Of a stretch of 64,000 bases of DNA, positions 11,002 through 61,695 are shown piece by piece (the first letter of the stretch is position 1; every line of letters starts with the position of its first letter). Source of the stretch: Candidatus Berkelbacteria bacterium RIFCSPLOWO2_01_FULL_50_28 (GTDB lineage: Bacteria > Patescibacteriota > UBA1384 > 2-12-FULL-50-11); the NCBI GenBank assembly GCA_001774395.1, contig MEZX01000002.1, positions 302,101 to 366,100 on the forward strand. The letters run 5' to 3'. The notes under the pieces were generated by a model that made no database searches, was not told the origin of the DNA, and saw nothing but the letters and a program-made list of their open reading frames with translations. A program made the translations under genes and the position numbers.

Positions 11002-11003
11002 CA

Positions 11004-41050: not shown

Positions 41051-41061
41051 CGTCTTACAAT

Positions 41062-41121
41062 CTCCCAATTACCCAATATCAAATGACTCAATTGTGGAAT
41101 TGGATATTGGGATATTGAGTA
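41062..41121. promoter_or_regulatory. ~60-bp imperfect palindrome overlapping the giant-gene RBS/start (CCCAATT-ACCCAATATC...CAATTG...GATATTGGGATATTG)
   Basis: Nested inverted repeats centred on CAATTG at ~41091. The SD GGGAG (complement of 41062-41066) lies in the left arm. Confidence 0.35.
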
Positions 41122-42516: not shown

Positions 42517-43491
42517 CTAACCCATTCTCCGGATAGATCGGGGGGCTTTGGCGGCTCGGAGGAGTTTGGCGAATTTGCGTTTCTGACGCTTGCGGTAGAT
42601 GAATAAGAGGACAAACAGGATTAGTAGTGCGATGCAAAGAATAATTAGCCACATCGGGAAGACATAGAAAACTAACTCCGAGCTCAGCTGGTCGCCTTTT
42701 TCGCCGTAGAGGATATTTAGGGTGGCGACATAACGACCGATCTTCAACGGCTGATCGTAGGATTGAGTAATTAAACGATCGGCCTTCGGAAAAATGTTTT
42801 TCTGATCGAAATCGATGCTGGCGGTCTTACGGCCGAAGATGTTAGTCAGGGTGATAAAGCCTTTTGGTTTGATATGGACAGAACCGTTGTTGTGGATTCG
42901 GGAATTGAACGTGATAGGTGAGTGTTCAAAACGTATTTTATCGACTTTAAATTCTTTAACATAAGCCGAGTAGCTGATATCACCAGCCACAGCTACCAGA
43001 ATTAAGCTACCAACCTTTGTTCTCGTAACGGCACCCGTGCCGCTAACTTTGTCGTTGTTTGCTAAATAGGCCAGAATTGAGCCGTATTGACCGCCTGGTT
43101 CAGCGTTGACGGGGATAGTGATAACGAACTTAACGACTTGTGTCTGTAAGGGGGTTAGGGTGAACTTCGACGGCGTAATCTTCGTCCAGTTTTTTAGGAA
43201 ATAAATTGAGTCATCTTCCGCGACGATTTTAGCTTGTCCGAGTTCGTTGCCAACGAACGGCTGGATTCCCATCTGATATTTTTGGACAATCCCGCTGGTG
43301 TTAACAACTTTCATTGAGCTCTTTATGGTATCGCCGGGCTTGGCAGAGAGCTCAAAGAGCGGTGGAGAAATGGAAACTTTTGCTTGGTCTACAGTCGCTT
43401 CCTGAGCCCGGATATTGGCTGGCAAGACAGAAAAAACTAATACCAAGACCACCAGCGCTAAAATTCTCAATTTACAATTTACAATTTTCAT
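42517..43491 (-). CDS. DUF916/DUF3324-like cell-surface protein, copy A'
   Basis: Signal peptide MKIVNCKLRILALVVLVLVF. Block ITIPVNAEPGGQYGSILAYL. C-terminal TM plus tail RKRQKRK. The first 7 codons are the intergenic-type AAAATTGTAAATTGTAAATTG motif. Confidence 0.55.
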   Translation of the reverse strand: MKIVNCKLRILALVVLVLVFSVLPANIRAQEATVDQAKVSISPPLFELSAKPGDTIKSSMKVVNTSGIVQKYQMGIQPFVGNELGQAKIVAEDDSIYFLKNWTKITPSKFTLTPLQTQVVKFVITIPVNAEPGGQYGSILAYLANNDKVSGTGAVTRTKVGSLILVAVAGDISYSAYVKEFKVDKIRFEHSPITFNSRIHNNGSVHIKPKGFITLTNIFGRKTASIDFDQKNIFPKADRLITQSYDQPLKIGRYVATLNILYGEKGDQLSSELVFYVFPMWLIILCIALLILFVLLFIYRKRQKRKFAKLLRAAKAPRSIRRMG

Positions 43492-45182: not shown

Positions 45183-45186
45183 GTCT

Positions 45187-46444: not shown

Positions 46445-46447
46445 TTT

Positions 46448-46705: not shown

Positions 46706-46738
46706 AAGTTGATTGTAGCAACTTGCGACGGTTGAATA

Positions 46739-46758: not shown

Positions 46759-46770
46759 TAATTTTTCCGA

Positions 46771-47721
46771 TCATCTGCTCATAGCTCGCAAAAGTTTAGC
46801 TCGACGCCGGCGGAAGTACACGGTTGAACCAACCGCCAGAATTGCCAATAGCAGGACTATAATAATGAAGGGCCAGGGGATGGAGACAAATCGAGAACTG
46901 GCCACTAAGATTTTTCCGTCTTGCTTAAGAGTGAATTTGGCGTCGTAGACCCCGGGCCAGATTGTGCCGGTATAGGCGCTGATATATTGCCTCGAAGACT
47001 CGGGCATTAGGACCGAGCTCGCTAACTGGGTGACCATCTTTTGCTCACCCCAGGTTGGCGTTAAAGTCAGATCGCCATCAGCGAAAAAGAAAAATCCGGT
47101 CGGGTTACTAATTTCGGCCAGGAACGGTACCGGTGTGCTAACAACTATTTTCGGTGTCTGGAACGAGCTGATGCTCAAGCTTTCAATGGTTGGCTTCGTG
47201 GTCGAATCGACCGAAAGCAAAAACGAGGTGCTTAATGCTGGAATAATTCGGGTATTGGCGTTTTCGTCAAAATAATTTGCTGGTAGGCGAGCCTGGAAAA
47301 TCAGGGCGGCGCTGTAACCACCCGGGACAGTACCCTTGGGCGCTAGGATGGTTACCTGAACTTCTTTACTGCCTTGGGCGTCCAAAATGAGGTCTGGACT
47401 GTCGAGCGTTAGCCATTCAACACCTGAGTGTGGCCTTGGCTCGGCCGTAAATTCGGGTGATCCGAGGTTGTTAATGCCACTAATACTAAATTTAGAAGCG
47501 GACAATGGGATTGGTTCCTTCCCAAGATTGGTAACTTTAATCTTCACGATCGTTTTCTCGCCTGGTTTAACGGTCTGCTGAACTAAGCCAGGGCTAATTG
47601 ACAGTGTCGGGCTAATGGCGCCTTGGCCTGACGCTGACAAGGTGAATGCAAATACCGACATTAAGATTGCCAGCGTTAGAATTTTCAATTTACAATTTAC
47701 AATTTTATCGCGTTCGCTCAT
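46771..47721 (-). CDS. DUF916/DUF3324-like cell-surface protein, copy A2
   Basis: Start set at MSERDKIVNCKLKILTLAILMSVFAFTLSASG (signal peptide). Upstream ORF extension is AT-rich repeat sequence. Block VTILAPKGTVPGGYSAALIF. C-terminal TM plus tail RRRRAK. Confidence 0.5.
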   Translation of the reverse strand: MSERDKIVNCKLKILTLAILMSVFAFTLSASGQGAISPTLSISPGLVQQTVKPGEKTIVKIKVTNLGKEPIPLSASKFSISGINNLGSPEFTAEPRPHSGVEWLTLDSPDLILDAQGSKEVQVTILAPKGTVPGGYSAALIFQARLPANYFDENANTRIIPALSTSFLLSVDSTTKPTIESLSISSFQTPKIVVSTPVPFLAEISNPTGFFFFADGDLTLTPTWGEQKMVTQLASSVLMPESSRQYISAYTGTIWPGVYDAKFTLKQDGKILVASSRFVSIPWPFIIIVLLLAILAVGSTVYFRRRRAKLLRAMSR

Positions 47722-47892
47722 TTTTCGTTCTGGCGAACTCAAAATCATTGAATTTTCAATCATCAAATTTTAATTTATCGGTTTTACCACATTCTGTCAT
47801 TTGAAATTCAATCGAAATTTGAAATTCGCCTCTCGACTCCGCTCGAGGCGACCTGAGCACCGTCGAATGGTCGAAATTTGAAATTACTTTTC

Positions 47893-50800
47893 TCATGGAA
47901 AAGTTGCTGTTATCACATAAACGACGTCAGCTGTGTAATCGCCGTTAGCTTGGGTGTTCGATGGGTAGAGGCGGTAAGTAATATCGTTGGTGGCGCCTGT
48001 GGCCGGTGCGGTTCGGTCGGCAACTGGGTCGCCCGGGCCGGTGTGAGAAAAGCCAGCAAATTTAGCCCCGCCGTTGGTAAAACGATCAGCCGTGCCGCCG
48101 GTTAACGATGAGTCGTCGGTTGAATAGCCAAAGCCGTAAGACCCAGCACTGAAGGTTGTCGGAGTCGCGTTCGTACCCGTCCAATCGGCTAGTGTCACCC
48201 CACCGAAGCGGACATTAGTCATCGCTTGGGTTGACCAAGCGTAAACGACATAGCCGTTCAAGGCATTACTAGAAGCGGTCAGCGTCGATGTTTGATCACT
48301 GGGGTTGGAGCCGGGGTTAATGGTACCGAAGTCTTTCGAAGTGGAGTCCAGGCCTAGGGTTAGTGTCTGACCAAAAATCCAGTTAACGGTGTTACCGCAG
48401 TCGGTGTTGGTGCCGTCGCTAGCGATAATTGTTGATCCGCCAGAGGCATCAGATCGAGAGACATTAACATACGAGGTTTTTATTTGGTCGTTACCAACGG
48501 CAGCGACATTTAGGAGCCAACTACCGGTAATGGCGGAGTTTCTGAAGTATAGTCTCGTTCCAACCGCTTGCCCGTTCCAGTTCATATTGTTAATCGTATA
48601 GGTGGCGCCGGATTCGTATTCTACTTTCACACTAGCTGTGGTGATGGTGTAGTTGTTGGTGACGGTTGCGGCGGCGTTAAAGTCGACTCCTGCCACCCAG
48701 CCCGTTCGTTCACAGTCGGATGCAATCGTGCCGGAGCTGTTAGTAATGGTCAGGTCGTAAAACGCGTTGGTTGTCAGCATCCCACCAGACAAGGTTTGGG
48801 TACTGGTGCCACTCAAAGTGGTCGTGCCGGTATTAGCGGTAAAGGTACCCGAGTTAGCGTAGTTGCCTTTAATTGCAAATGTTGCGGCTGAGGAAGCTTG
48901 GTAAGTTTGATTAGCTCCGATAGTAAGGTTGCCGGTAACGGTGATGGCAGGATCACTCGTTTCAGCATTAACAACGGCTGATCCAGCGCCAGTCAGGGTG
49001 AAATTGCCTAAAACTTCAGTTCCAGCACATGCGTTATGTACTAAGTAGCTATTAGCATAGAAAAGGTTGTAGGTGTCAACTTCGATATCGTATACAGTTA
49101 CGGTCTCACTCACTTTTTGGATACTTGTAATAGGTTCCGTTCCAGAATAGGTGGCAAGCAGATCGCCAACCCGCAGTTCCTCAACAGCTTTTGAGCTGTG
49201 GTCAGCCATAATAAAGACGTGATTTGCTGTGGCCTGCACCTGGTTGTTAATGATGTAGTACGCATCTTTAGTCCCAATAACTGTTCCAACAACTGGAGAT
49301 ATGACTACTTGGTTACTACTGAGGTCGTAGGATTTGACAAGGTCACCTTCTTTAAGCTCTTCAATTGGCGTACTTCCCGTGGGGGTAAGTACTTGGGTCC
49401 CAGCAAGGAAGGACGTGGCCGAAGTGGTCATTGTGTAGGTCGGTGTACCAGAGGCCGGGCTGGTTTGGAGGTTGTAATAAGCTCTCGTGCCACAACCACT
49501 AGTGATGTTGGCGCTAGTGGTATTCTCGTAGCTAATCGTGGAAGCGTTGGCTGTAAATAACCCGGTCTTTGAGAAAGGAGTACCGCTACCAGTTAAGTGG
49601 TAAGTGCGATTGCCACCATCAAAGGTGGTGGCGGCCGAAGAAATACTCATGACGCTACTAACCGTAATATCTCCGGTTCCACCAGTTTGAGTGGTAATGG
49701 TAGCGGCGGGAGAAGCGGTAAACGTAAGGCTACTAAACGTCCAAGCGGTTGAGCCAGAAGTGGTGCCAAAGTTTTTAGCGCCTGCCACACTTTGGGTGAA
49801 TGTGCCGCCGGTGAGGTTGATGATACCTGCAGTTCCGGCGACGTTACCATTGACAGTAATATTCTGAGTACCGAGCAGCGATCCGGCAGTCATCGTCAGG
49901 TCGTTGGTAACAACCAAGGCGTCCTGAGGTGCCCAGCCACCGCCCGAACCGCTGAAAGTTAGGTTGTAGAATGAGTCACCAGCAGATTGGATAGTCTTAC
50001 TAGTGGCGGTTGCGTTAAAGATAAAAGTAGATGTCCCAGCGTTAAACACCGCATTACTTTCATTCGTAAAATTTGTTCCGACATAGACTGTTGAGGATCC
50101 GGCGGTAAAAATCGGTGCCCCGGTATTACCAGCTACTATAAAAGTCCCGACAGTAAGAGTTTGGTTGGCGGTGTCAAACTCACTATTTCGAGAGTTTCCC
50201 CAGCCAAACCGTAACGATCCGGTGATGGTAGTTGTTCCTGCCAAGGAGATTTTATAGCCGGTGCTGATATTGTCTGTAATGGTGGTATTGTAGGTAAACG
50301 CCGGGAGGGTGAAGTTGGCAGATCCGCTGAAGTCGATGCTTCCATTACCGAGTCCAAAAGTTCCAGCAGGGTCAAGACTGAAACTCCCCCCAGTTTTGTT
50401 CATACCTTTTGAATTAAAGTCAAAGGTTCCTGTCCCGAGAGTGAATGTGCCGTTATGGGCAGCACCGTTGTTTGTTATCAGTTGTGTGGTGTTGCCACTT
50501 TGGCCAACGGTCAAGTTGTAAAATCTGGGCTCCCAAGCATTTGTCGAGCCATTTTTGATAGTTTTTGTACCCGTCCCATTCATCACAACCGTTGAGGTAC
50601 CTTCGACGATACTGACACTGTCTTGAGCAACTGCACTAGTATCCCAATTACCGGAAACCGTAATAATTGAAGCCCGTTCTGTGAGAGACCAGGTGCCGGC
50701 GTTACCTGTCAGGTTGCCGCCAATAGTTAGAGCGTAGTTAAAGGTAGTATTGGTATCAAAAGTGCCGTTAGTAATATCGAAATTGTTAGTGACGCTCATC

Positions 50801-53800
50801 GCGTCTTGGAGCGTCCAGCCCCCACCCGAACCGTTGAAAATAATATTATATAATGCTGAGCCGCCAGTCATGGTTCCAGTGAGGGTTCGGCCGGTACTCG
50901 TTGAGCTGAAGGTCACTGTCCCTGTGCGAGCGGTAAAGGTACCGGAATTTGACCAGTTACCCCCAACTGTTAAGGCATAAGGAGTGGCCGTCACATCAAA
51001 CTCACCCGCGGTGATAGTGAGATTACCACCATTATCTGTAAGGGTTGCTTCCTCTAGCACATAAACCTCGGAACCGTTATTAACGGTTAGGTGGTGGTAG
51101 GTAGCGGACTGAACGGTTGAGTTGCCACCAGCGTTGTTGCCGGTGTAGGCGAAAGTGGAGGTAGCGGCAGTTAAGGCTCCAGCCGGGGAGGCGAGCAGTT
51201 GGAATGAGTCACCGGTTGTGCCACTTAAAGTCCAGGTGCGGTTACCAGCATCTAACGTTGTGGTGGCTCCAGAAGAATCACCGGATTTTCCAACCCTCAA
51301 AATGTCACTGACGGTTATTCCACCACTTCCACCTGTTTGGGTGGTAATAGTTCTTCCTGCTGCTGGGGCACCGAGCGAGTTAGAAAAAGTTAGATCATAA
51401 AATGTCCAAGCAGTACTGCCACTTGTTGTGCCAAAGTTTTTATTAACCCCTACCCGCTGTTCAAACGTCCCCCCAGTTAAGCTGATAACCCCTGAGGTTC
51501 CAGCGACATTGCCGTTGACGGTGATGTTTTGGGTACCGTTCAAGGTGCCAGCGGTCATCGTGAGGTCGTTAGCAATTGCCACGGCTGCATCAGGTTGGAC
51601 GGTTGCGGCTCCGTTCACGATCACGTTGTAAAGGGTCTGGCTGTTAGGAGAGTATGTCGAGGTACCAGTCGACGGGGCAAAGGTGAATGTTGAAGTGCCG
51701 TCATCGACCGCTAATGTTCCGGTGCCGTTGACGAACTTAACATGGCCGGTTGCTGAGATGAAAGCGGTTTGGAAATTGGCAGTATGAGTTCCGCCATTGG
51801 AGTTGACGTAAAAAGTGTCGGTAGCACTCGCGCGATTGAAGGTGGCGGTGCTTGATCCCCAATTCGAACTCGTGGCGCCATTGTCGGTTGAGTCGCCCTG
51901 GACCCATTTATCTGCGTTAATGGTGTAGTTTTGGGTATTAAAGGTTGCCGTTCCCGTAGCGTCTGCTTTTACCTGCGTGTATCCGCTGGTAGTAATATTA
52001 CCCCCGACATTAAAAGTCACCAGTCCCGCGACATCGCTGTGCATCAGGATACTCCAGGTGCCGTAGTTGGTGGCACCAGTGACGGTAACAGTCGCGGCGC
52101 TTAGTTTACGCAACTGGAAGGTGGCATTAGAACCAGATAGGGTTGCTCCTGTTCCTAATACTAAGTCGGCTCCAGCTGTTCTAAACAGTTCAAATTCACA
52201 GGTGACCGAACACGTCATCGTGCCGCCACTGGCATCACCGATGGTTAAAATGCCAAAGACATCGGTTCGGGCTCTGGTCATCGTGGTTGTTTTGGTGTTG
52301 TAGGCAACGGTCAGGTTTTCAAACTGGGTCGTACCCGTACCTGCGATATTGCCGTCACCATTAAGCTGAACGGTTGAGCTGTCGCGGGTGAAGACACCGT
52401 TTAGGTCCACCGTCCAGTGGCGACTGACGGTGATTGTTGAAGTCCGGGCTCGGAAAACAGCACTAGCACTACCAGCGATTGCGACATCACGGGTAACGTT
52501 AACGGCGTGGTTACTAGTAGTGGTGTCAAATGTTCCGAGAGTAATAGTAAGATCGTTAGTGATGATGACCGCGCCACTAGGTGTTACTGTTCCCCCAGAG
52601 CCGTTCAAGATCACGTTATATAGAGATTGACCATTCGGAGCGTAAGTCTTAGAACCGGAAGTATGGACCCAGGTAATTGTCGAAGTTCCAGGGGTTACCG
52701 TTATAGCGGGAGTGCCGTTAATAAACAGAACGGCGCCGGAAACCGTCACTGACGAGCTACCAAGATTAAGGGTACTGCTTGTTCCGCCGTAGGTAGCGTG
52801 AGGAAGGATGGAGTTGGTTGTACTACTCAAAGTAACGGTGCTAGAGCCGAAGCCAACAGCAACCGGGCCATCACGCCCAGCATTGCCATCACCGAACTGC
52901 AAAGTAGCCGCGGTTAGAGCGAAGTTTTGGGTGTTGACAGTTGTTCCAGTTACAGCCGTATTGGCCGCAACATAGACACTTCCGGTAGTTGTAATATCAC
53001 CAGCGAAATTATAAATGCTGTTATTAGCAGTTGCGTACGGTTCAATGGCCCAGTTCCCGTAATTGCCACCGGCCATTGTGAAAGTGGAGCCAGCCCCTCC
53101 GTTAATAAGGAAGCTCATTACAGAGCCACCAGTGAGCGTGGTAGCGGCGCCAAAGACGAGAGGAGTTTTGCTAATACTACCAGCGAGGTTAATGTACGAG
53201 GCGGCCTGACTGACCGTTCCCCCATTCAGGGTCATCACTCCATTAACTTGGTTCATACTGGTGCCGACGGTAATCGTTTTACCCGAGCCGGCCAACTGAA
53301 GGTTGTACATCTGGCTAGCAGAGTTGAGGGTACCGGTGTTGTCAGCCGTACCAGTCATATTAACCGTTGAGGCAGTGCCTTCGGTGAATTTGTTGCCAGT
53401 ATCGTTAAAATCGTTACCAACAGTAATTGTTGAACCGTTACCAATCAGAACAACGCCGGCAGTGTTAGCTAGCGTCAGGTCTCGAGCGACGTTAACGGCG
53501 TAGTTTGAGCCGGTCGTATCAAGCGATCCGTTGGTAACTGTCAGGTCTCGGCCGGTGCCGGTTGTACCTTCAAGGACGAAGGTTTCGGAGGAGTTGTTGG
53601 GGATTAGGTCGTAGTAAGTTGCCGACTGAATAGTTGTACTGCCAGCACCGTTATTGCCGGTGTAGGTGAAGGTTGAGCTGGCGGCGGTTAGTGATCCGGC
53701 GGGGGAAGCAAGTATTTGGAAAGAGTCACCAGTAGTACCAGACAGAGTCCAAGTGCGATTGCCGGCATCGAAGTAAGTGCCACAACCGTCAGCGGCCTTA

Positions 53801-56800
53801 CCTATTCTCATAACATCGCTAACTGTTATTCCCCCTGATCCGCCGGTTTGAGTCGTGATGAAAAATGCGGCACAGATTGGGGAGTTAGGATTCGAAAATG
53901 TCAGATCGTAGAATGTCCAAGCGGTTGAGCCGCTCGTTGTCCCGAAGTTCTTGGCCGCCCCAACTCTTTGCTCAAAAGTCCCACCCGTCATAGTAATCGT
54001 TCCTGCGGTGCCAGCAACGTTACCACTAACAGTTACATTTTGTGTTCCATTCAAGTCACCAGCCGTAATAGTAAGATCATTAGTAACGGTTAGAGCGTCA
54101 ACAATAGTGATATCGTCGCCAGTATCGTCAATAATAAGGTTGTAAAAACTCTGGCCGGCAGAGGTCATGTCGCCATCGGCAGTTGCGTTACCCATTGTTA
54201 CAGTTGATGTCCCAGGGGTGATCACGGCGGTATCGAGATTTTCCCAGTTACTACCTATGGCGTAGCTCGCCGAGCCCAAACTCATTGCAACTGTGCCGGC
54301 AGTGGATGTAAAACGGAAAAGTGCTGTCACGATCCAGGCAGTATTGTTGACGGTATTATCAATTGTTAGTGCACCGGTAATATTATTAGTAGTTACAAAT
54401 GTATAAACATTCATTGTTCCGGCTCCGATTGTGTAGGTTTGAGTTCCAGACGCTGGGCGGAAGTAGAGGTTACCAGCATAAGTATAGGCAGGGATGGTGG
54501 TGCTGCCAGTCATGGAATAATAGAAGTTGGGGACACTAATTGTGCCAGTGTATGAATAGGTAGGAGTTGCATTAGTAACATGGAAGCAACCTCCACTGCC
54601 GCCAATAGTACCCGCAATTGTTAATGTGGTGCCGGTACCGCCGTCGTAATAAATCGCTTGGGCGCAGCCGGCAACGCTGTTGAGCGTTCCTTGGATGTTG
54701 AGATCACTGATGACATGGATATCTGTTGCTGTCTGTGTGTAAATAGCTCCACCAGAAATAGTTAATTTGTTAAAGTGAGTGCCCGAACCGCCGTTGGTGG
54801 TAATCGTCTTAGTTGTTCCCGAAAGGACGACTATTGAAGTCCCATAGCCAGTGGCCTGAGTTGTCCAAGTTGAGTTGCTTTGCGTCCAGTTGCCGCTAAC
54901 AGTAATAGTTGAGGCCTGGGCTTTATAGGTAGTGCCGGAGGAAAATGTTAGATCGCCTGCAACCGTTAGGGCGTAGTTACCAGTTGAATCGGCATCTACC
55001 GTGCCATTAGTTAAGTTGAAATTACTGGCAGTCTCAACTGCTGCGCCGTACGTCCAGCCACCACCGACGCCGTTGAAAGTGAGAACATAAAACTTGCCTG
55101 TTGCACCAGTCATTGTCCCAGTGAGAGTTTTACCGGTAGTAGTGGCGTTGAAAGTGACGGTTCCAGAATTAGCTAAGAATGTTCCAGAGTTAGAGTAACT
55201 ACCGCCGATGGTTAAGGCGAAGTTGCCGGCAGTCACGTCTAATGTACCGGCCGTAATAGTTAGGTTGTTCGAAGTGATTGTTGCGGCTTCTAGGACGTAG
55301 ATCTCAGAGCCGTTGTTCGGAGTTAGATTGTAGTAAGTGGTTGATTGAATGATTGTGTTGCCAGCGCCGTTATTGCCAGTGAAGGTAAAAGTGGATGTAG
55401 TGGCCGTAAACGTTGGACTGGCGGTGAACACAAAAGGATTACCGTTGGTTCCCGAAAGAGTGTATGTTTTTGCGTCAGCGTCAAATGAAAGCGTATCGGC
55501 GGTGGCGTCAAGCGTAAAAATACCTGAAACGGTAATCCCGCCACTTCCGGTCGCTGCGATTGCTGTTCCTGCTGAGTACGAAGCAGTTAGGGAAAGGTTG
55601 TTGAAAGTCCAAGCAGTGTTGCCCCCAAATAAAACGGCTCCTGATCCACCAAGAGTAAGAGTTCCGCCGGTTAAATTGATCGTCCCGTTACCTGTTAGGT
55701 CGGGATCGGCACCACCGTCGCCGACGCTAAGGTCTTGGGTCCCCAGTAACGATCCCGCCGTCATGGTTAAATCGTTGGTAGCCGTAACCGCCGCGCTTGG
55801 TGTCCACTCGCCGCCCGAACCGTTAAATGTAAGGTTGTAGAAAGCCGAAGCACTGGTCATGGTCCCCGCTAGAGTATTGCCAGTATCGGTCGCGTTGAAT
55901 GTTATGGTACCGGATTGAGCGGTAAAAGTGCCGGAGTTAGAATAATTGTTGCCGATCGTCAGGGCGTAGTTAGAAACTGTCACATCAAGAATGGCACTAG
56001 CGTGAGTGATGGTGAGATTATTTGTTACAACAGTGTCTCCTTCCAAAACGAAGGTATCAGCGGCGTTTAGCTCCAGGTCATAATACGAGCTGGTCATTGA
56101 TTGGATGGTCGTATTCCCTCCAGCATTAGCTCCGGTGTAATAGAGTTTAGAAGTACCACCTGTTAAAGCTCCGGCGGGGGAAGCCAAAAGTTGGAACGGA
56201 TCACCGCCAGTACCAGATAGGGTCCAAATTCTATTGCCGGCGTCCAAGGTTGCCGTACCTGCGTCACCGCTCACACCAACTTTCAAAATCCCACTAACTG
56301 TAATCCCGCCAGAGCCGCCTGTTTGAGTAGTAAAGGTAATTCCTGACACACCGGTGTTGGAAAAAGACAGACTACTAAACGTCCAGGCCGTAGAGCCCGA
56401 CGTGGTACCAAAGTTTTTAGAGGCAGCCGCAGTTTGAAGAAATGTTCCACCAGTTAAGCTAAAAGCTCCGGCTGTGCCAGCGACGTTACTATTAGCCGTG
56501 ACGTTTTGAGTTCCAAGGAGCGTTCCGGCCGTCATCGTTATATCGCCATTTATGTTAACGGCCGCGCTTGGTGTCCACTCACCGGCAGCGCCGTTAAAGA
56601 TGAGGTTGTAGAAAGACGACGAACCGCTCAGAGTTCCTCCGAGCGTATTGCCCGTATCTGTGGCGTTGAAGGTGACGGTGCCACTACGAGCCGTGAAGGT
56701 GCCGGAGTTAAGGTAATTGCCGCCGATTGTGAGGCCCCAGTTGGAGCCACTAACCGCATCCAAAATAGCAGATGCCTGAATGGTTAAGTTTCCAGTTGCT

Positions 56801-59800
56801 GTAGTAGCTTCCTCTAAAACATAGGTGTCGAAGGAACAGATCGCGGAGCAGCCTATATCAAGATTGAAATATGAGCCAGCCCCGCCTCTTTCTATAGTTG
56901 TATTTCCCGCCCCGTTCTCACCCCGATAAGCAAAGGTTGATGTCGAACCAGTTAACGACCCTGCTGGAGAAGCCAGGACTTGGAAGGGATCACCAGCAGC
57001 GCCGCTTAATGTCCAAGTACGGTTACCGGCATTGAGAGTTGTTGTCGCTCCGGCGGCGTCGCCGGACGCACCGACTCGAAGAATTGAAGAGACGGTGATA
57101 CCGCCAGAACCACCGGTCTGGGTGGTTACAGTAAACGGACTGGAAGCGTGAGAATTAGAGAAGGTCAGACTAACAAAAGTCCAGGCACTGGAACCGGAAG
57201 TCGTACCAAAATTCTCCGCTGCCGCTACCCTTTGCGTAAAGGTACTTGAGCCGCTCATGGTAATTGCTCCAACTCCAGTGGCGCTACCGTTTACTGTCAC
57301 ATCAACCGAACCGCTCATCGTCCCGCCAGTATTGGAAAGATCATTGGCAACCTGAACAGCATTAGTGCTTAGCGAGAGCGTACTGGCGCCAGAATGAGTG
57401 AGGTTATAGAATTGCTTCGTACTGCCGGTACCGCCGGAAATGATCGTTTGGGTACCGCTGGTGGCGGCAAAATCAACTGTGCCGGTGTCAGCGTTAAAGG
57501 TGCCACCGATACTATTTGTCCAGCTACCTTTGACGGTTAAATTGGCGGCGCCCATCGTCAGTATCCCCTGGGATTGTGAAAACGTGACACTGCCGTTGAA
57601 CGTGACAGTTTGGCCGTTAAGATTGGTAATATTGGCTCGACTACAGCAGTCGCTTACCGTCAGATTGCCGGTAAAGGTTGTAGTCCCTTGGAAAATAAGA
57701 CTATAGGTATTTGGGAGGGAGTTAACCAGGCCGGAGTTATAGGTATAGGCGAGTAGGTTAACGTTGGCAGAGCCGCCGTGGAAGTAGAGCGAGCCGTTAC
57801 CAGTTCCCCAAGTTCCCGCAAGAGAAAGTGGATTTGTCGGCGGAGAAGCCATAAAGAAGGTTTTTGAATTCAGGTCAAAGGTACCGGCCCCTAAGGTCAG
57901 CACGTTTTCAACAGCGAACGATTGTTGCATCTGGGTTGTTTTACCGACGGCCTGACCGACGTTCAAGTTCCAAAAACGGCCTTCCCACGTATTAGTTGCC
58001 CCTGTCGTTATCGTCTTCGTTCCGGTTCCGTCCATGATAACCGTCGAGCCACCCTCAACAATATTGACGCTATCTTGGGCAATCGCTGATGTATTCCAGT
58101 TCCCTGAAACAGTGATAGTCGAGTTACGCTCATTGAGTGTCCATGTTCCTGAGTTACCGGTAAAATTGCCGCCGACAGTTAGGGCATAGTTAAAAGTACT
58201 GTTAGTGTCGAGGGTCCCATTAGTAATATCGAAGTTGTTAGTGACACTCATCGCATCTTGGAGGGTCCAACCACCACCAGAGCCGTTGAAGATGATGTTG
58301 TAAAAAGATTGGGCGTTGGAGGTAATGGTTTTGCCGGTGGCGACGGCATTGAATGTGACAGTGGAAGTTCCAGGCGTAACGGTTATTACCCCGGTGCCGT
58401 CTTTGTATTTTAGGTTGCCTGCTATCGAGACCGATGAAGATCCCAAGTTCAAGGTATGTGTGCCACAGTTCGGACCAACATAAAGTGCGTCGGTAGTGCT
58501 TGTTAGCGATACTACAGATGCATTGAAACTAACTGCCCACGAGCCGGTTCTCGTTGGTGCACAGTCAGCGATAGAAAAAAGGAGAGCAGTAATAGAGTAG
58601 TTACTAGCAGTTGTTGTAAAAGCACTTCCCGTTACACCGTTAGCCGCTTGGAGTTTCATTACCCCCGTCGTGGTAACGTTTCCGCCAAGTTGCCAAGTAT
58701 TGCTGTTGGATGCCGTGTAAGTGTCAACACCCCAGGATCCGTAGTTTCCTCCGGGGATCGTTATCGTCAAGCTAGCAGCATCCGGTCGGAAATACAGATC
58801 TCGATTACCTGTAAGTGTCGTTGCTGAGGCAAAGACTACCGGCGTGCAAGAAATAGTGCAATGAAGATTCAACCAAGACGAGCCTCCTTCGGCGACTGTT
58901 CCGCCATTGAAAGTTAAAACATTATAAACATCGAAGCTGTTGGTTGAGATAGTTGTTGTGAAACCCGATGACCCCCACTGGAGATTATAATACTGACTAC
59001 CACTTGCAGATGTGAACGTCCCGGTACCGGACATAATTACTGTTGAAGTATCGTGGGCAAACTTGTCGCCCGTATCATTGTAATGTCGGGCGATATTGAG
59101 TGTCGAGCTACCAGCGGTGTAAGAAACTCCAGCCGTGTTAGCGAGTGTAAAGTCACGAGTAACAGTTAGATTTTGGTTGCCGGCCGTGATAGCGCCGTTG
59201 GTGCCATTAAAATCATTGGCCACCTCGACAGCGTTACTGAATGTCCAGCCACCAGCGGCGCCATTAAATGTTAGGTTGTAGAATTTGCCAGTCGCGCCGG
59301 TCATCGTGCCGCCGAGGGTTTTGCCGGTGGCAGTGGAGGAGAAAGTTACCGTGCCGCTGGCGGCGGTGAAAGTGCCGGAATTGCTCCAGTTGCCGGAAAC
59401 GGTGATGGCGTTGGTGGTGGAGACGGTCAAAGTGCCGCCGTTATCAATGGTGACCCCAGCGACCGTGACCGAAGCGGTGTCCTCGGTGATATTGTGGGTG
59501 TTAAGAATTTGAACCGTATCGCCCGCTTGAGGCGTAGTGAACCCACAGTTCGTCCAGGAAAGGGCGTCGCTCCAGTTACCGGTGGCGGCTGATTGACAGG
59601 CGTTGTCGGAGGCGATTAACCACGACCTGGGTTCCACCCACTTCGTGGAATTTTCAATTTTCGAATTTTGTCGGACTTCGCCTCCATAGCTTCTTCGCTG
59701 CGCTTCGTCGCTATCAGTTTTCAATGAATTTTCAATGCTTGAATTTTCAATTTCCGCGGGCTTGCCCGCCGTAGTTGCCTCCTTCGCCGAAGTGGCTACG

Positions 59801-60981
59801 GAAGCCGAGTCAACGGAGGCGGGGCCGAGTTCAAATAAAAACGGTGAGATGTTAGGGGTTTTGAAGGAATAAGTGAGGGAGTAAGTTTGACCGGCCTTGG
59901 CATCGATTGTCCAGTGTAGTTTAGTTGGGCTATCTGCGGTCTTTGTTACCTTCGCTTCTGTATCTTTAATCTCAAAATTATTTGGTACAAATTCATCCAA
60001 ACCGTAACTGCCGTCTTTGGTGGCTTCGAAATTGAGGGTGTAGTCGTAATCGACGGGTGGATAGGTTCGGGTGGCGCCGACGCGTTGGAGATAGAAATCT
60101 TGATTGGCTTTGACGCTAAACTGGTCGTGGAGGGTGCGAGTGCCTTCTCCGGCCTTAGCAATGATTTTAACTTTGTAGTTGCCCTCAGCTTTTGGTTGAT
60201 AGTTGGCCTCGTAGTCGGGGCGATCAGTTTTACCGTAAACTTCACAGTCTTTATTGACTCGAACGGTGCCGTTGGCAGTGTCGAGGGTGGTGATTTTGCC
60301 GTTTGGGTCAGTGACCTCAACGGTCATTGCGGCCGTACAAACCATTTTGCCCCTATCGTCGAGCACGGCCAGGCTAAAGAAAGCCTCTTTGCCAACTGGA
60401 TAGACGGCGTAGTCAGGGTTGAAAGCTAACACGCCCCAGAGAACTTTTTGGTCGTTGACCACTTGATCGGTATTTTTCTTGAGGGTTTTGATATCGTAGG
60501 CGCCGGGTGAAAGCTGCTGATTGTTGTCGCTAATCTTTATTTCATCTGGGCTAGCAGTGTCAATCTTGACTTGGTCAGTGATTGTCTCGCCACCAACAGC
60601 TTTAGTTAGAGAGATTTCGGTTTCGCCGACGGCTGTCTTCGGTTGCTCTAATTTAACAGTGTCTTCGGCCGAAACAACTTCGTAATTACCCTTGAAATAC
60701 TCGTTGGGTTGGCTACTACGAGCGGCGACCTCCGCAACGGGAATAAACTGCGGATCAAGTTGGATAGTCTCGGCAACCGTGGTCTGGCTGACGTTGTTAG
60801 AATTAACAACTTCGTTAAGTTGGGCGCGAATTGGTCCAAAGAAGGCCAGCACCCCCAAACCGATGACGAGGGCGAACAGAAAAGAGAAAAACCTGACCGG
60901 TCGAAGGGCATATTCAGACAACACAGTTGCCCGCGTCTGTCGGAATATTCCGTCAAGTCGAGTTTTTCCTGGTATTGGCAT
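47893..60981 (-). CDS. giant membrane-anchored modular surface protein (4,362 aa), paralog of the 27.9-kb gene
   Basis: ATG at 60981, preceded by GGGGAGAGGGGGAG. N-terminal KTRLDGIFR motif plus TM. Same beta-helix-like repeat vocabulary as the larger giant (GGNYSNSGTFTA..., LTGGTFEQRVGAAKNFGTTSGS...). Shared C-terminal domain ending YVITATFP. Confidence 0.7.
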   Translation of the reverse strand: MPIPGKTRLDGIFRQTRATVLSEYALRPVRFFSFLFALVIGLGVLAFFGPIRAQLNEVVNSNNVSQTTVAETIQLDPQFIPVAEVAARSSQPNEYFKGNYEVVSAEDTVKLEQPKTAVGETEISLTKAVGGETITDQVKIDTASPDEIKISDNNQQLSPGAYDIKTLKKNTDQVVNDQKVLWGVLAFNPDYAVYPVGKEAFFSLAVLDDRGKMVCTAAMTVEVTDPNGKITTLDTANGTVRVNKDCEVYGKTDRPDYEANYQPKAEGNYKVKIIAKAGEGTRTLHDQFSVKANQDFYLQRVGATRTYPPVDYDYTLNFEATKDGSYGLDEFVPNNFEIKDTEAKVTKTADSPTKLHWTIDAKAGQTYSLTYSFKTPNISPFLFELGPASVDSASVATSAKEATTAGKPAEIENSSIENSLKTDSDEAQRRSYGGEVRQNSKIENSTKWVEPRSWLIASDNACQSAATGNWSDALSWTNCGFTTPQAGDTVQILNTHNITEDTASVTVAGVTIDNGGTLTVSTTNAITVSGNWSNSGTFTAASGTVTFSSTATGKTLGGTMTGATGKFYNLTFNGAAGGWTFSNAVEVANDFNGTNGAITAGNQNLTVTRDFTLANTAGVSYTAGSSTLNIARHYNDTGDKFAHDTSTVIMSGTGTFTSASGSQYYNLQWGSSGFTTTISTNSFDVYNVLTFNGGTVAEGGSSWLNLHCTISCTPVVFASATTLTGNRDLYFRPDAASLTITIPGGNYGSWGVDTYTASNSNTWQLGGNVTTTGVMKLQAANGVTGSAFTTTASNYSITALLFSIADCAPTRTGSWAVSFNASVVSLTSTTDALYVGPNCGTHTLNLGSSSVSIAGNLKYKDGTGVITVTPGTSTVTFNAVATGKTITSNAQSFYNIIFNGSGGGWTLQDAMSVTNNFDITNGTLDTNSTFNYALTVGGNFTGNSGTWTLNERNSTITVSGNWNTSAIAQDSVNIVEGGSTVIMDGTGTKTITTGATNTWEGRFWNLNVGQAVGKTTQMQQSFAVENVLTLGAGTFDLNSKTFFMASPPTNPLSLAGTWGTGNGSLYFHGGSANVNLLAYTYNSGLVNSLPNTYSLIFQGTTTFTGNLTVSDCCSRANITNLNGQTVTFNGSVTFSQSQGILTMGAANLTVKGSWTNSIGGTFNADTGTVDFAATSGTQTIISGGTGSTKQFYNLTHSGASTLSLSTNAVQVANDLSNTGGTMSGSVDVTVNGSATGVGAITMSGSSTFTQRVAAAENFGTTSGSSAWTFVSLTFSNSHASSPFTVTTQTGGSGGITVSSILRVGASGDAAGATTTLNAGNRTWTLSGAAGDPFQVLASPAGSLTGSTSTFAYRGENGAGNTTIERGGAGSYFNLDIGCSAICSFDTYVLEEATTATGNLTIQASAILDAVSGSNWGLTIGGNYLNSGTFTARSGTVTFNATDTGNTLGGTLSGSSSFYNLIFNGAAGEWTPSAAVNINGDITMTAGTLLGTQNVTANSNVAGTAGAFSLTGGTFLQTAAASKNFGTTSGSTAWTFSSLSFSNTGVSGITFTTQTGGSGGITVSGILKVGVSGDAGTATLDAGNRIWTLSGTGGDPFQLLASPAGALTGGTSKLYYTGANAGGNTTIQSMTSSYYDLELNAADTFVLEGDTVVTNNLTITHASAILDVTVSNYALTIGNNYSNSGTFTAQSGTITFNATDTGNTLAGTMTSASAFYNLTFNGSGGEWTPSAAVTATNDLTMTAGSLLGTQDLSVGDGGADPDLTGNGTINLTGGTLTLGGSGAVLFGGNTAWTFNNLSLTASYSAGTAIAATGSGGITVSGIFTLDATADTLSFDADAKTYTLSGTNGNPFVFTASPTFTATTSTFTFTGNNGAGNTIIQSTTYYNLTPNNGSEIYVLEAATITSNNLTITAGTLDVTAGNFALTIGGSYSNSGTFLANSGTVTFNATTTGKTLTGTMTGATGKFYVLTFNGVGGGWTYGAAVETASNFNLTNGTVDADSTGNYALTVAGDLTFSSGTTYKAQASTITVSGNWTQSNSTWTTQATGYGTSIVVLSGTTKTITTNGGSGTHFNKLTISGGAIYTQTATDIHVISDLNIQGTLNSVAGCAQAIYYDGGTGTTLTIAGTIGGSGGCFHVTNATPTYSYTGTISVPNFYYSMTGSTTIPAYTYAGNLYFRPASGTQTYTIGAGTMNVYTFVTTNNITGALTIDNTVNNTAWIVTALFRFTSTAGTVAMSLGSASYAIGSNWENLDTAVITPGTSTVTMGNATADGDMTSAGQSFYNLIIDDTGDDITIVDALTVTNDLTITAGDLNGTQNVTVSGNVAGTAGTITMTGGTFEQRVGAAKNFGTTSGSTAWTFYDLTFSNPNSPICAAFFITTQTGGSGGITVSDVMRIGKAADGCGTYFDAGNRTWTLSGTTGDSFQILASPAGSLTAASSTFTYTGNNGAGSTTIQSATYYDLIPNNSSETFVLEGTTGTGRDLTVTNGSLDTTGSNYAVNVARDLTLANTAGVVLIGNGSTITVGNDFNDTGNKFTEGTASTVNMTGTADNTGTLNSASQMYNLQLAGSGKTITVGTSMNQVNGVMTLNGGTVSQAASYINLAGSISKTPLVFGAATTLTGGSVMSFLINGGAGSTFTMAGGNYGNWAIEPYATANNSIYNFAGDITTTGSVYVAANTAVTGTTVNTQNFALTAATLQFGDGNAGRDGPVAVGFGSSTVTLSSTTNSILPHATYGGTSSTLNLGSSSVTVSGAVLFINGTPAITVTPGTSTITWVHTSGSKTYAPNGQSLYNVILNGSGGTVTPSGAVIITNDLTITLGTFDTTTSNHAVNVTRDVAIAGSASAVFRARTSTITVSRHWTVDLNGVFTRDSSTVQLNGDGNIAGTGTTQFENLTVAYNTKTTTMTRARTDVFGILTIGDASGGTMTCSVTCEFELFRTAGADLVLGTGATLSGSNATFQLRKLSAATVTVTGATNYGTWSILMHSDVAGLVTFNVGGNITTSGYTQVKADATGTATFNTQNYTINADKWVQGDSTDNGATSSNWGSSTATFNRASATDTFYVNSNGGTHTANFQTAFISATGHVKFVNGTGTLAVDDGTSTFTFAPSTGTSTYSPNSQTLYNVIVNGAATVQPDAAVAIANDLTMTAGTLNGTQNITVNGNVAGTSGVISLTGGTFEQRVGVNKNFGTTSGSTAWTFYDLTFSNSLGAPAAGRTITTQTGGSGGITVSDILRVGKSGDSSGATTTLDAGNRTWTLSGTTGDSFQLLASPAGALTAATSTFAYTGNNAGGNSTVQSATYHHLTVNNGSEVYVLEEATLTDNGGNLTITAGEFDVTATPYALTVGGNWSNSGTFTARTGTVTFSSTSTGRTLTGTMTGGSALYNIIFNGSGGGWTLQDAMSVTNNFDITNGTFDTNTTFNYALTIGGNLTGNAGTWSLTERASIITVSGNWDTSAVAQDSVSIVEGTSTVVMNGTGTKTIKNGSTNAWEPRFYNLTVGQSGNTTQLITNNGAAHNGTFTLGTGTFDFNSKGMNKTGGSFSLDPAGTFGLGNGSIDFSGSANFTLPAFTYNTTITDNISTGYKISLAGTTTITGSLRFGWGNSRNSEFDTANQTLTVGTFIVAGNTGAPIFTAGSSTVYVGTNFTNESNAVFNAGTSTFIFNATATSKTIQSAGDSFYNLTFSGSGGGWAPQDALVVTNDLTMTAGSLLGTQNITVNGNVAGTAGIINLTGGTFTQSVAGAKNFGTTSGSTAWTFSSLTFTASPAATITTQTGGTGDITVSSVMSISSAATTFDGGNRTYHLTGSGTPFSKTGLFTANASTISYENTTSANITSGCGTRAYYNLQTSPASGTPTYTMTTSATSFLAGTQVLTPTGSTPIEELKEGDLVKSYDLSSNQVVISPVVGTVIGTKDAYYIINNQVQATANHVFIMADHSSKAVEELRVGDLLATYSGTEPITSIQKVSETVTVYDIEVDTYNLFYANSYLVHNACAGTEVLGNFTLTGAGSAVVNAETSDPAITVTGNLTIGANQTYQASSAATFAIKGNYANSGTFTANTGTTTLSGTSTQTLSGGMLTTNAFYDLTITNSSGTIASDCERTGWVAGVDFNAAATVTNNYTITTASVKVEYESGATYTINNMNWNGQAVGTRLYFRNSAITGSWLLNVAAVGNDQIKTSYVNVSRSDASGGSTIIASDGTNTDCGNTVNWIFGQTLTLGLDSTSKDFGTINPGSNPSDQTSTLTASSNALNGYVVYAWSTQAMTNVRFGGVTLADWTGTNATPTTFSAGSYGFGYSTDDSSLTGGTADRFTNGGAKFAGFSHTGPGDPVADRTAPATGATNDITYRLYPSNTQANGDYTADVVYVITATFP
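49034..49413 (-). other. Hint (hedgehog/intein) domain embedded in the giant protein; bacterial intein-like (BIL) domain or mini-intein
   Basis: S-FLAGTQVLTPTG...IEELKEGDLV...VYDIEVDTYNLFYANSYLVHN, followed by A-C. About 128 aa. Interrupts the YYNL...TYT...LT(V/G) repeat unit. Local GC is visibly lower than the flanks. Confidence 0.6.
59655..59750. repeat. copy of the ~100-bp intergenic repeat element, lying in-frame inside the giant CDS
   Basis: AATTTTGTCGGACTTCGCCTCCATAGCTTCTTCGC...GCTATCAGTTTTCAATGAATTTTCAATGCTTGAATTTTCAAT aligns with 3370..3475. Encodes a low-complexity linker with three IENS units. Confidence 0.7.
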
Positions 60982-60989: not shown

Positions 60990-61034
60990 ACTCCCCCTCT
61001 CCCCTGTAAGTGGATATAAACAAACCCTCCATGT
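60990..61034 (-). promoter_or_regulatory. conserved 45-nt leader/promoter-proximal element, copy upstream of the 13-kb giant gene
   Basis: Near-identical to 41845..41889. Followed upstream by the TTTGAACCTGTTAA...TTGACGAC box at 61062..61089. Confidence 0.5.
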
Positions 61035-61061
61035 AGATTAACAATGCCTAATTTCTGTGGG

Positions 61062-61146: not shown

Positions 61147-61695
61147 TTACTTCTTTTCCACCCGGGTGTAGCTGGCGGTGAGTTTGGTTTTGGCAATCGA
61201 GTTGTCTTCGATTTCTTTCTTCGCTTCGGCCAGGCCGGCATCGGAAGTAATTGAGAGAGAATTATTTTCGATGGCGTAGAGGGTGAAGGTGTAATCGTGG
61301 GCTTCGCCTTCTGGCGGGCAAGGTCCGCCGTAAGCAAAGTTGCCAAAAATGTTACGACCGATCGTGCCAGGTGGACGAATACCTTGGGTAAATTTCGTGG
61401 TTCCGATCGGAATATTCCAAACCGTCATATGGGCTAGAAAAGGGGAGTCCTTGTACTGGTTCTTATCCAAGTCTTGGTCTTCGACGATAAAGGCTAAAGA
61501 CTTGGCTTTTTTGGGGATATTGCCGATAGTGAACTCCGGGCTAAGATTGTCACCGTCACAGGTAAACTGGGTGGGCAGTTGATCACCAGTTTTGAAAGAA
61601 GGGCTCCGGAGCTTGAAACTAGTCTCGGATCTGGCGACGCGCTGACTATTCCAAGCTAAGCCGGAGATTCCAATTATCACTAGCAAAATCAGCAT
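61147..61695 (-). CDS. YbhB/YbcL (PEBP/Raf-kinase-inhibitor-like) family protein with N-terminal TM anchor
   Basis: FTCDGDNLSPEF, AKSLAFIVEDQD, GRNIFGNFAYGGPCPPEG..HDYTFTLYAI. Start trimmed to MLILLVIIGISG; the longer ORF to 61851 is possible. Confidence 0.6.
   Translation of the reverse strand: MLILLVIIGISGLAWNSQRVARSETSFKLRSPSFKTGDQLPTQFTCDGDNLSPEFTIGNIPKKAKSLAFIVEDQDLDKNQYKDSPFLAHMTVWNIPIGTTKFTQGIRPPGTIGRNIFGNFAYGGPCPPEGEAHDYTFTLYAIENNSLSITSDAGLAEAKKEIEDNSIAKTKLTASYTRVEKK

Follow-up and report, generated by a model that had tools for sequence, protein, structure and literature searches.

Two giant genes on the minus strand, here called A and B, lie in a 64,000-nucleotide stretch of contig MEZX01000002.1 from Candidatus Berkelbacteria bacterium RIFCSPLOWO2_01_FULL_50_28, belonging to the candidate phyla radiation (CPR, or Patescibacteria); the whole stretch is referred to below as the window. 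Our analysis suggests that A and B are probably ancient paralogs encoding surface-fibre proteins, that their repeated modules have been kept by selection, and that each heads a conserved anchoring cassette of smaller genes (Table 1). Together the two genes measure 41,001 bp, equal to 6.5% of the 629,280 bp of the longest contig bearing these proteins. A first-pass annotation of the same DNA had described B as a modular paralog of A and had proposed ongoing gene conversion or module shuffling between and within the giants as a possible source of surface variation. The paralogy was supported. Concerning the second proposal, the results point to old modules that selection has maintained and not to a variation system at work.

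Modular paralogy of the giant genes

Repeat sharing between the two giant proteins was measured by BLASTP of 120-aa tiles (E<=1e-5). Tiles matching A make up 88% of B, at 30-81% amino acid identity, and 60% of A is matched by B, in agreement with the repeat types that the first-pass annotation had assigned to both. Longer collinear blocks were also detected, pairing B residues 524-1376 with A residues 6749-7591 (57% identity over 864 aa) and B3255-3839 with A6994-7590 (54%). One further module of B, designated X, has three copies in A (36419-36976, 29330-29860 and 21320-21895) with 60-71% amino acid identity to the B copy. The two giants end with the same domain, as had been proposed: the C-terminal domains (CTDs) are homologous (B4206-4361 versus A9139-9303), with 33% identity and E-values of 1e-13 to 2.5e-17. 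They also open alike. In six-frame translation of the window, [RK]LDG[IVL][YF]R is matched twice only, by RLDGIFR (B residues 8-14) and RLDGIYR (A residues 17-23), and each is followed by one hydrophobic helix (B residues 31-49, A residues ~44-61), which bears out the shared opening of (K/T)RLDGI(Y/F)R and one transmembrane (TM) helix described earlier. Judged from these sequence comparisons, B is a true modular paralog of A.

Likeness at the DNA level was evaluated separately. An exact-match scan found no A/B match longer than 18 bp, a scan of all ungapped 50-bp windows gave a best value of 44/50, and the best A/B BLASTN alignment anywhere reached 76% over 359 bp. The near-identical A/B stretches of 50-170 bp reported in the first-pass annotation are thus nonexistent. 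Its example, 36480-36650 against 48440-48600, has at most 48.5% ungapped identity (measured against ~48430-48600) and a longest exact run of 11 bp; what exists there is a truly homologous module (A1365-1550 versus B4018-4208) with 62% amino acid and 60-66% nucleotide identity. Synonymous divergence (dS), which was estimated together with the ratio of nonsynonymous to synonymous divergence (dN/dS) by the Nei-Gojobori method, was at least 1.5 or beyond the range of the method for each A/B module pair tested. Furthermore, a ~600-aa supermodule is present in six in-register copies that show no grouping by gene, and pairings run across the two genes (the copy at B781 with that at A7005, 59%; B3348 with A7005, 64%; A4336 with B2677, 52%), which is the opposite of concerted evolution. 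The likeness of A and B modules is therefore attributed to old duplications within and between the genes, followed by purifying selection on the amino acid sequence while synonymous sites diverged. Saturated synonymous sites, copies that do not group by gene, and a B protein that is identical on 12 contigs (see below) leave ongoing conversion or shuffling between the giants unsupported.

A second comparison was made within A, where two copies of a ~7-kb duplication are offset by ~8 kb and share 72-85% DNA identity piece by piece. In many duplication blocks the proteins are 93-100% identical, yet only about half of the synonymous third positions agree. The pair A3744-4209/A6414-6879 gave a dS of 0.70 and a dN/dS of 0.087 overall (0.02-0.17 per 60-codon sub-block), the pair A5170-6075/A7807-8715 gave 1.16 and 0.137 (0.02-0.27 per 100-codon sub-block), and the pair A4787-4966/A7427-7607 gave 2.2 and 0.061. 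These estimates argue for a duplication that is old (dS 0.7-1.2 overall) and under strong purifying selection (dN/dS 0.02-0.15). Genes of the cassette and their orthologs in a relative from the Hainich aquifer show a comparable dS of 0.78-0.92, so the duplication is about as old as the split from that relative. Individual 100-codon blocks within 14879-29902 (e.g. A5170-5369 versus A7807-8006) were 98-99% identical in protein and ~84-85% identical in DNA, with a dN/dS of ~0.02-0.03. Such conservation is unusually strong for a repeated surface-protein module, and selection that disfavors long stretches of identical DNA may be a further factor.

One end of this duplication (20432-21829 versus 28442-29839) contains exact runs of 102 bp (21445-21546 = 29455-29556) and 74 bp (21692-21765 = 29702-29775). 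The first-pass annotation had noted the pair as 20560-21700 and 28570-29700; the pair and its long exact runs are real, while the identity is 84-85% and not the ~90% given. When codon columns were shuffled (20,000 replicates), the mean length of the longest run was 36 bp and the maximum at most 95 bp, and the observed 102-bp and 74-bp runs were reached in none of the replicates. The dS around the patch (aa ~3804-3983/6474-6653) is also lower, at 0.34-0.47. Since the reduced dS and the statistically improbable exact runs coincide, the simplest reading of this patch of a few hundred base pairs is one limited, short conversion tract. The claim of conversion within A is consequently retained for a single candidate patch and not for the old ~7-kb duplication in which it lies.

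Domain architecture and the recurring cassette

Repeats of the ~600-aa supermodule, together with related modules, make up the stalks; the supermodule was modelled as a right-handed beta-helix. Pfam matches on the giants are sparse and comprise a Hint domain in B together with Laminin_G_3/pentraxin and Beta_helix/NosD in A; by these matches A carries lectin-like LamG/pentraxin domains. The Hint domain of B scored 29.7 bits against PF13403 (Hint_2; cutoff 28.4) and matched a bacterial intein-like (BIL) domain structure, PDB 2lwy, with an E-value of 7e-9 over residues 3-138 of 138. It opens with Ser (SFLAGT...) and closes with ...LVHN, and the next residue is Ala (LVHN-ACAG). A canonical self-splicing intein is unlikely, as the residue after His-Asn is Ala and not Cys, Ser or Thr. 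A BIL domain of the cleaving type is the likelier identity, and it may self-cleave B between stalk and anchor.

The heads of the two proteins differ. That of A is a tandem duplication of a ~570-aa unit and is kept at 33-42% identity in ~1,700-aa Saccharibacteria and WWE3 proteins (loci L086 and L091) that have no long stalk, while B-type heads were also found on large proteins of other Patescibacteria. In the leader of B, the sequence ...PIRA|Q marks a possible signal-peptidase cleavage site. RLDGIYR was rejected as a general leader motif: it is missing from 14 other large CTD proteins and is therefore regarded as restricted to this pair or lineage.

The CTD was modelled as a pilin-like beta-sandwich with a predicted local distance difference test score (pLDDT) above 90. 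Its best solved neighbors in Foldseek are TLP-1b, CsuA/B, the pilin domains of FimH and PapG, CfaB, CupE and TasA, and the match is taken as a fold resemblance of the model, not as family membership. Sequence searches returned 111 homologs, mostly ~360-aa Patescibacteria proteins with no Pfam domain covering the CTD. With a profile search (E<=1e-10) the number of cluster representatives rose to 1,298, and many of these measure 1,000-3,500 aa and have the domain at their very C-terminus.

Genes adjoining the giants carry the same domain. B is followed by the CTD proteins s402 and s417 and the WxLIP-like proteins s331 and s324, and A is followed by the CTD protein s390 and the WxLIP-like protein s322. 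The paralogous s402 and s417 are 57% identical and have the CTD of the giants at their end (...YTGTADYITTGTF). PF06030 (WxLIP_PGBD, DUF916) matched s324, s322 and s331 in a common register with E-values of 0.0012, 0.0058 and 0.1, all below the 27.3-bit cutoff, and precomputed PF06030 matches are present on 21 of 47 s324 homologs. These three proteins, each with a C-terminal TM helix and a basic tail, are thus likely homologous to DUF916 proteins by sequence; a second Ig-like domain is plausible from their length.

To follow the two families across genomes, hidden Markov models (HMMs) were built for the CTD and for the WxLIP-like proteins, and 80 CTD-bearing loci from GTDB species representatives (L021-L100) were compared. 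WxLIP-like genes occur in 75 of the 80 loci, and in 40 of the 41 that are at least 18 kb long. The two kinds usually alternate along one strand, as CTD gene, WxLIP-like gene, CTD gene, WxLIP-like gene, with a typical start-to-start spacing of ~1 kb between a CTD gene and the adjacent WxLIP-like gene. The first CTD gene is either small (~370 aa) or 1,700-2,700+ aa long. In nearly all loci the CTD ends at most one codon from the stop, and no open reading frame (ORF) in the 80 loci was matched by both HMMs. This four-gene cassette recurs in Microgenomates, WWE3, Saccharibacteria and other Patescibacteria. A text search of the literature found no paper linking DUF916 or WxL with CPR.

Table 1 Features of the window and of giant genes A and B (positions in nucleotides of the window; aa, residues of the encoded protein)
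Feature	Position	Strand	Description
Giant gene B	47893..60981	minus	4,362 aa; GenBank OGD62527.1/OGD64716.1, UniProt A0A1F5EBS4 (ORF list and exact protein look-up)
Purine-rich leader, 46 nt	60990..61035	minus	just upstream of B start; CACATGGAGGGTT..TATCCACTTACAGGGGAGAGGGGGAGT
B N-terminal leader	60835..60960	minus	motif 60940-60960 (read from sequence), helix 60835-60891, then ...PIRA|Q
B-specific head	59692..60819	minus	aa ~55-430; no counterpart in A; weak Filamin/Ig match
B stalk	49414..59691	minus	aa ~431-3856; A-homologous modules, at least 4 in-register ~600-aa supermodule copies
Hint/BIL domain of B	49030..49413	minus	aa 3857-3984, between stalk and last ~380 residues; absent from A
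Module X in B	48358..48948	minus	aa 4012-4208
B CTD	47896..48366	minus	aa 4206-4362; pilin-like beta-sandwich (model), ending ...YTADVVYVITATFP
s331	46771..47766	minus	DUF916/WxLIP-like; signal peptide, Ig-like domains, C-terminal TM; directly downstream of B
s402	45187-46350/46395	minus	small secreted protein with CTD
s417	43995-45182/45248	minus	small secreted protein with CTD
s324	42517..43491	minus	DUF916/WxLIP-like, C-terminal TM; UniProt A0A1F5EBI5 'DUF916 domain-containing protein'
Giant gene A	13157..41068	minus	9,303 aa from TTG 41068; 9,297 aa from ATG 41050
A N-terminal leader	40886..41020	minus	RLDGIYR motif 41000-41020, helix aa ~44-61, then ...SSA|S
A-specific doubled head	37469..40891	minus	aa ~60-630 and ~630-1200, mutually 50-62% identical
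Tandem repeat in A, 141 bp (47 aa)	32106..32502	minus	2.8 copies (TRF)
~7-kb duplication, copy 1	22799..29902	minus	A aa 3723-6090; LamG/pentraxin-like 25529-25963; Pfam Beta_helix/NosD 23699-24235
~7-kb duplication, copy 2	14879..21901	minus	A aa 6390-8730; Laminin_G_3 17669-18106
Candidate gene-conversion patch	21445..21765 (copy 2)	minus	partner 29455-29775 (copy 1); exact 102/74-bp runs amid 84-85% identity
A tail	13160..14380	minus	aa 8897-9303, CTD included (13160-13654)
s390	11974-13146	minus	small CTD protein; downstream of A
s322	11004-11972	minus	WxLIP-like with TM; downstream of A
s278	10168-11004	minus	Big_1/invasin-like with TM; downstream of A

Several further genes are interspersed among those of the cassette: two 23S_rRNA_IVP genes (four-helix-bundle, Avd-like), a GIY-YIG gene and an NYN-domain gene (42039-42410, 43491-43886, 46448-46774 and 41175-41837). 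A Hainich-aquifer contig, L101, has PemK and HicB genes at comparable positions. Diversification by a diversity-generating retroelement (DGR) was considered on account of the two Avd-like genes; no reverse-transcriptase Pfam match was found among the submitted window ORFs, and self-comparison of the window gave no candidate for a DGR template/variable repeat pair.

The 46-nt leader of B has a second copy with one mismatch at 41846-41891, upstream of the start codon of the NYN gene that precedes A. No Rfam match was found for it and no stable fold was predicted. Identity of these non-coding leaders points to constraint or recent copying, given that the synonymous sites of the giants are saturated. 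Gene callers choose ATG 41050 as the start of A. Compact housekeeping genes flank the giants (RF, S2, a 150-aa EF-Ts, RRF, RseP, ProRS, TIM, PGK and trigger factor), and no tRNAs or Rfam families were found within the window. A 77-bp inverted repeat, 92% identical, lies on either side of the tsf-frr pair (2217-2292 and 3372-3448), with a weaker copy (78%) inside gene B at 59664-59736. A second short inverted pair (85%) joins 1249-1301, upstream of rpsB, to 43464-43516 in the s324/IVP intergenic region. These repeats may be small dispersed intergenic elements.

Alleles and historical exchange of modules

An exact look-up returned the B protein, identical at all 4,362 residues, on 12 contigs of NCBI, JGI, ENA and Logan assemblies from the same aquifer, at Rifle. 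Its protein cluster at 90% identity contains one other member, a 935-aa fragment. For A, the cross-assembly comparison covered the sequence outside its central 23-31 kb. Contigs that extend for ~10 kb into A match the window exactly or are a few single-nucleotide polymorphisms (SNPs) apart from it, and positions 1974-23146 of the window are 100% identical to contig MEZU01000012.1 of GCA_001776125.1. Exact look-up of the 9,297-aa A protein, and of the PEBP gene with a GTG start, gave no record.

The difference in length that was found lies in the 141-bp tandem repeat of A. Unit 32237-32377 is missing from the contigs of ERZ4903072 and ERZ4903070, whose alignment contains a gap of exactly 141 bp and is free of SNPs, and the same short allele was deduced from gene length for the ERZ27254763 contig. 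A is called as 9,250 aa in these three assemblies and as 9,297 aa in the window, consistent with the loss of one unit; the long allele is present in two assemblies (the source of the window and JGI 3300025317). Independent assemblies otherwise agree on how long A is, which argues against variable counts of large modules. The first-pass annotation had suggested a search for variable module counts between strains, and among the assemblies compared the search yields one 141-bp unit in A, an otherwise constant length of A and an invariant B. The surface variation that it thought possible was not demonstrated within the population. This copy-number difference and the conversion-like patch are the only two signs of recent DNA-level events that were found, and both are in A.

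Module exchange over longer times was traced with relatives. A scan of metagenomes for the junction between the two A duplication copies found no second assembly of the same strain and returned a mosaic relative, L102, a 5.8-kb Hainich-aquifer contig that holds the 3' end of a giant ORF. Over the 616 residues compared, residues 1-205 are 95% identical to A6046-6250 and residues 333-615 are 88% identical to B4080-4362; the switch from A-type to B-type sequence falls at the start of module X, and the Hint domain is missing. Small genes like those of the B cluster follow in a changed order. In L101, from the same Hainich sample, a B ortholog (80% aa identity) is followed by orthologs of s331, s402, s417 and s324 (83-91%) and then by a Big_1 gene and PGK, with no NYN-A-s390-s322 block between. 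Elsewhere in the Patescibacteria, tails of 1,400-2,700-aa proteins (Saccharibacteria, WWE3 and others) are 44-55% identical to the last ~407 residues of A. L086 and L091 combine such a tail with the doubled head of A, so that A resembles a protein of this kind with ~7,700 stalk residues inserted, and several Patescibacteria proteins join a B-type head to an A-type tail. As read from these sequences, module exchange between lineages of the giant family is real but historical.

Comparison of L101 with window positions 42517-48755 and 9038-11004 also showed unequal divergence: identity falls to 54% for PGK (dN 0.40, dS saturated) and to 45% for the Big_1 gene, against 80-91% for the cassette proteins. 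That the surface cassette has diverged much less than the housekeeping genes beside it suggests that the cassette was laterally transferred or that the flank was replaced.

Other allelic differences were recorded in the same population. Three contigs (L006, L015 and L017) carry a second s402 allele with 19-20 clustered SNPs in the signal-peptide region (46234-46355). They are otherwise near-identical to the window, with at most one other SNP and, in L015, a small change at 61271-61275. Conversion from a paralog was rejected for this cluster and for another at 36967-36998 in L009; both are considered ordinary alleles, as no paralogous donor exists within the window. A Rifle scaffold, L008, is identical to the window from 39568 to ~46480 and then ~13% divergent across the GIY-YIG gene (46448-46774), past which it runs into groES/groEL rather than s331 and B. 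The junction is either a strain rearrangement at this homing-endonuclease-like gene or an assembly chimera formed through a repeated element.

Proposed function, alternatives and comparison with known systems

We infer a surface-fibre function for the giants. They would be exported via Sec by means of the long leader, after which the CTD would be retained at the cell surface by a beta-strand donated from a WxLIP-like protein or from the small CTD proteins, as is predicted for WxL and WxLIP proteins of Firmicutes; a strand-held CTD would also parallel donor-strand pili. The beta-helical stalk would hold the head out from the cell so that it can attach, plausibly to a host, and the BIL domain would possibly self-cleave B.

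Several results weigh against this explanation. The link between the CTD and the WxLIP-like proteins is drawn from gene adjacency and analogy. At E<=1, Pfam WxL (PF13731) finds none of the 116 members of the CTD family, among them A, B, s390, s402 and s417, and even at E<=10 it has no match in the window proteins; paired Trp-x-Leu motifs are missing from the conserved columns of the CTD, and DUF3324, the second WxLIP domain, has no Pfam match at E<=10. The likeness of the CTD to pilins is modest, with TM-scores of 0.3-0.5 and no Foldseek E-value below 1.5e-3. The N-terminal helix may not be cleaved off as a signal but may stay in the membrane as a permanent anchor, and the topology model would then change. 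As for the recent events in A, the 141-bp difference could be an assembler collapse, the short allele being seen in MEGAHIT contigs only, and the 29455-29775 copy of the conversion patch is known from the source assembly of the window only.

The alternative that survives best, which we consider possible but doubtful, is that donor-strand exchange joins the small CTD proteins into a pilus-like fibre, with the giants as its tip or cap and not as wall proteins anchored by WxLIP, and with the WxLIP-like proteins as membrane chaperones or assembly platforms. Donor-strand-exchange subunits (TLP-1b, CsuA/B, CfaB, TasA, FimH/PapG) are the best structural matches of the CTD, the giants resemble FimH and PapG in placing a pilin-like domain C-terminally behind a large N-terminal part, and the small proteins have conserved N-terminal beta-strand-like repeats (e.g. 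SSTNY-L...FG-GG). However, the fold match is weak, no donor strand was identified, and the N-termini of s390, s402 and s417 differ from the common ~360-aa family.

Ongoing conversion or module exchange between and within the giants, generating population-level surface variation in the style of a contingency locus, appears improbable, and for A versus B it is already largely refuted. The conversion-like patch, the 141-bp repeat-unit polymorphism, the mosaic A-type/B-type gene from a related aquifer community and the clustered allelic SNPs in neighboring s402 would fit such a process. Opposed to it are the saturated dS and the low DNA identity of A and B (no stretch above 88% over 50 bp, longest exact match 18 bp), module copies that do not cluster by gene, a B that is 100% identical on 12 contigs from different samples and assemblers with only a 935-aa fragment beside it in its 90% cluster, SNP clusters whose paralogous donor is missing from the window, and a dN/dS of 0.02-0.15 that denotes conservation and not diversification.

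It is similarly improbable that the exact runs in A and the 141-bp difference are short-read assembly or polishing artefacts and that no recent DNA exchange occurred at all: every sequence is indeed a short-read metagenome assembly, the short allele occurs only in MEGAHIT (k141) contigs, and 28442-29839 is covered only by the source assembly of the window (the identical L019 is probably the same assembly), but the copies differ by 15% around the patch, so mis-joining reads would have to cross many mismatches, the exact repeats (102 bp in the patch, 64 bp in the tandem array) fall short of both the usual read length and k=141, the long allele is found in two assemblies and the short one in three, and the lowered dS spans ~180 codons, well past the exact runs.

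Ancient paralogous giants with selected modules and an anchoring cassette thus remain the explanation that we prefer. A bolder and speculative extension is that the alternating cassette of CTD and WxLIP-like genes constitutes an undescribed, chaperone-free, Patescibacteria-wide fibre or anchoring system, distantly related to the WxL clusters of Firmicutes, in which small CTD proteins and membrane-bound DUF916-like proteins would hold very large beta-helical tip proteins, or polymerise beneath them, through strand complementation; the giants would then be its most extreme members and the main organelles of host attachment, and the BIL domain would provide regulated release. CPR bacteria are thought to live attached to host cells, and the molecules responsible for attachment are mostly unknown. 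That an ultra-small genome devotes ~41 kb to two related beta-helical surface proteins is of interest in this respect. Their shared tail and recurring neighbors define a specific candidate, open to testing, for a surface-anchoring or fibre system that is conserved in CPR bacteria, and may link it in evolution to the WxL clusters of gut-dwelling Gram-positive bacteria. We regard the conserved cassette headed by both giants as a more interesting result than the original claim of exchange. The analysis also serves as a correction: repetitive giant genes may look recombinogenic by eye even when their repeats are old, diverged at synonymous sites and conserved in protein.

The closest known arrangement is the WxL cluster of Lactobacillales and Bacillales, which contains a large WxL protein, small WxL proteins and a WxLIP composed of DUF916, DUF3324 and a TM helix (PMC9772566, PMC10599100). 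Such clusters are defined by at least one WxLIP with DUF916 (PF06030), DUF3324 and a TM helix together with at least two proteins bearing a WxL domain (PF13731, with two Trp-x-Leu motifs) (Hassan et al. 2023; PMC9772566, PMC10599100), and the WxL domain is predicted to be an incomplete beta-sandwich that is completed by a strand from WxLIP (PMC10599100, PMC9772566). Both arrangements combine a large surface protein of several domains, with the anchoring domain in every case at the C-terminus, with small secreted proteins sharing that domain and with adjoining proteins of the DUF916 kind (in the present cassette likely homologs) that carry a signal peptide, Ig-like domains and, C-terminally, a TM helix. 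Beta-helical adhesin domains also occur on some large WxL proteins. In contrast, the CTD of the giants has neither a Pfam WxL match nor Trp-x-Leu motifs, and DUF3324 was not detected. WxL proteins are reported almost solely from two orders of Firmicutes, and the host here belongs to the CPR; the large members are 4-9 times the 500-1,000 aa of large WxL proteins; and a Big_1 protein with a TM helix takes the place of an LPxTG partner. We have not filed the cassette as a WxL cluster, because the CTD lacks both the WxL match across the 116 members and the motifs.

The modelled stalk fold matches that of beta-helical fibrillar adhesins (the autotransporter passengers Vag8, Hap, pertactin, TibA and Fap2; the two-partner-secretion adhesins EtpA, HMW1 and FHA), although sequence identity of the stalk to their structures is only 9-15%. 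No autotransporter, two-partner secretion (TPS) or POTRA domain was matched by Pfam in A, B or their neighbors. To our knowledge, CPR bacteria have no outer membrane. The giants thus have no beta-barrel translocator, TPS domain or outer membrane to cross, and their export and anchoring must differ from those of beta-helical adhesins.

The best structural neighbors of the CTD model are subunits assembled by donor-strand exchange (TLP-1a/b; the chaperone-usher pilins CsuA/B, CfaB, FimA and FimH/PapG; and TasA), among which TLP-1a/b are environmental fibrils described by CryoSeek (PDB 9IKK; PMC11494351). As in tip adhesins, the pilin-like domain of the giants is at the C-terminus. No Pfam match to a PapD-like chaperone or an usher was found in any neighboring gene. 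The Hint domain of B resembles BIL domains of large secreted bacterial proteins (PDB 2LWY, Clostridium thermocellum) in its full-length match, Ser at position 1 and C-terminal His-Asn; it occurs here in B only, the Ala after His-Asn makes canonical splicing unlikely, and cleavage is a prediction. Unlike gene-conversion antigenic-variation loci such as pilE/pilS, vlsE and msp2, in which donors and acceptors are nearly identical and a population holds many structural alleles, the giants share no exact match above 18 bp, B is invariant on 12 contigs and A has one 141-bp difference. Finally, the giant genes of Omnitrophota (bioRxiv 10.1101/2023.11.21.568195) are likewise very large genes of ultra-small bacteria with a predicted extracellular beta-helix and a proposed role in attachment. 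Their products exceed 30,000 aa and have many TM helices and SecA-like domains, whereas A and B each have a single helix, at the N-terminus, and lack a SecA-like domain, and their conserved tail and its accompanying cassette are distinct.

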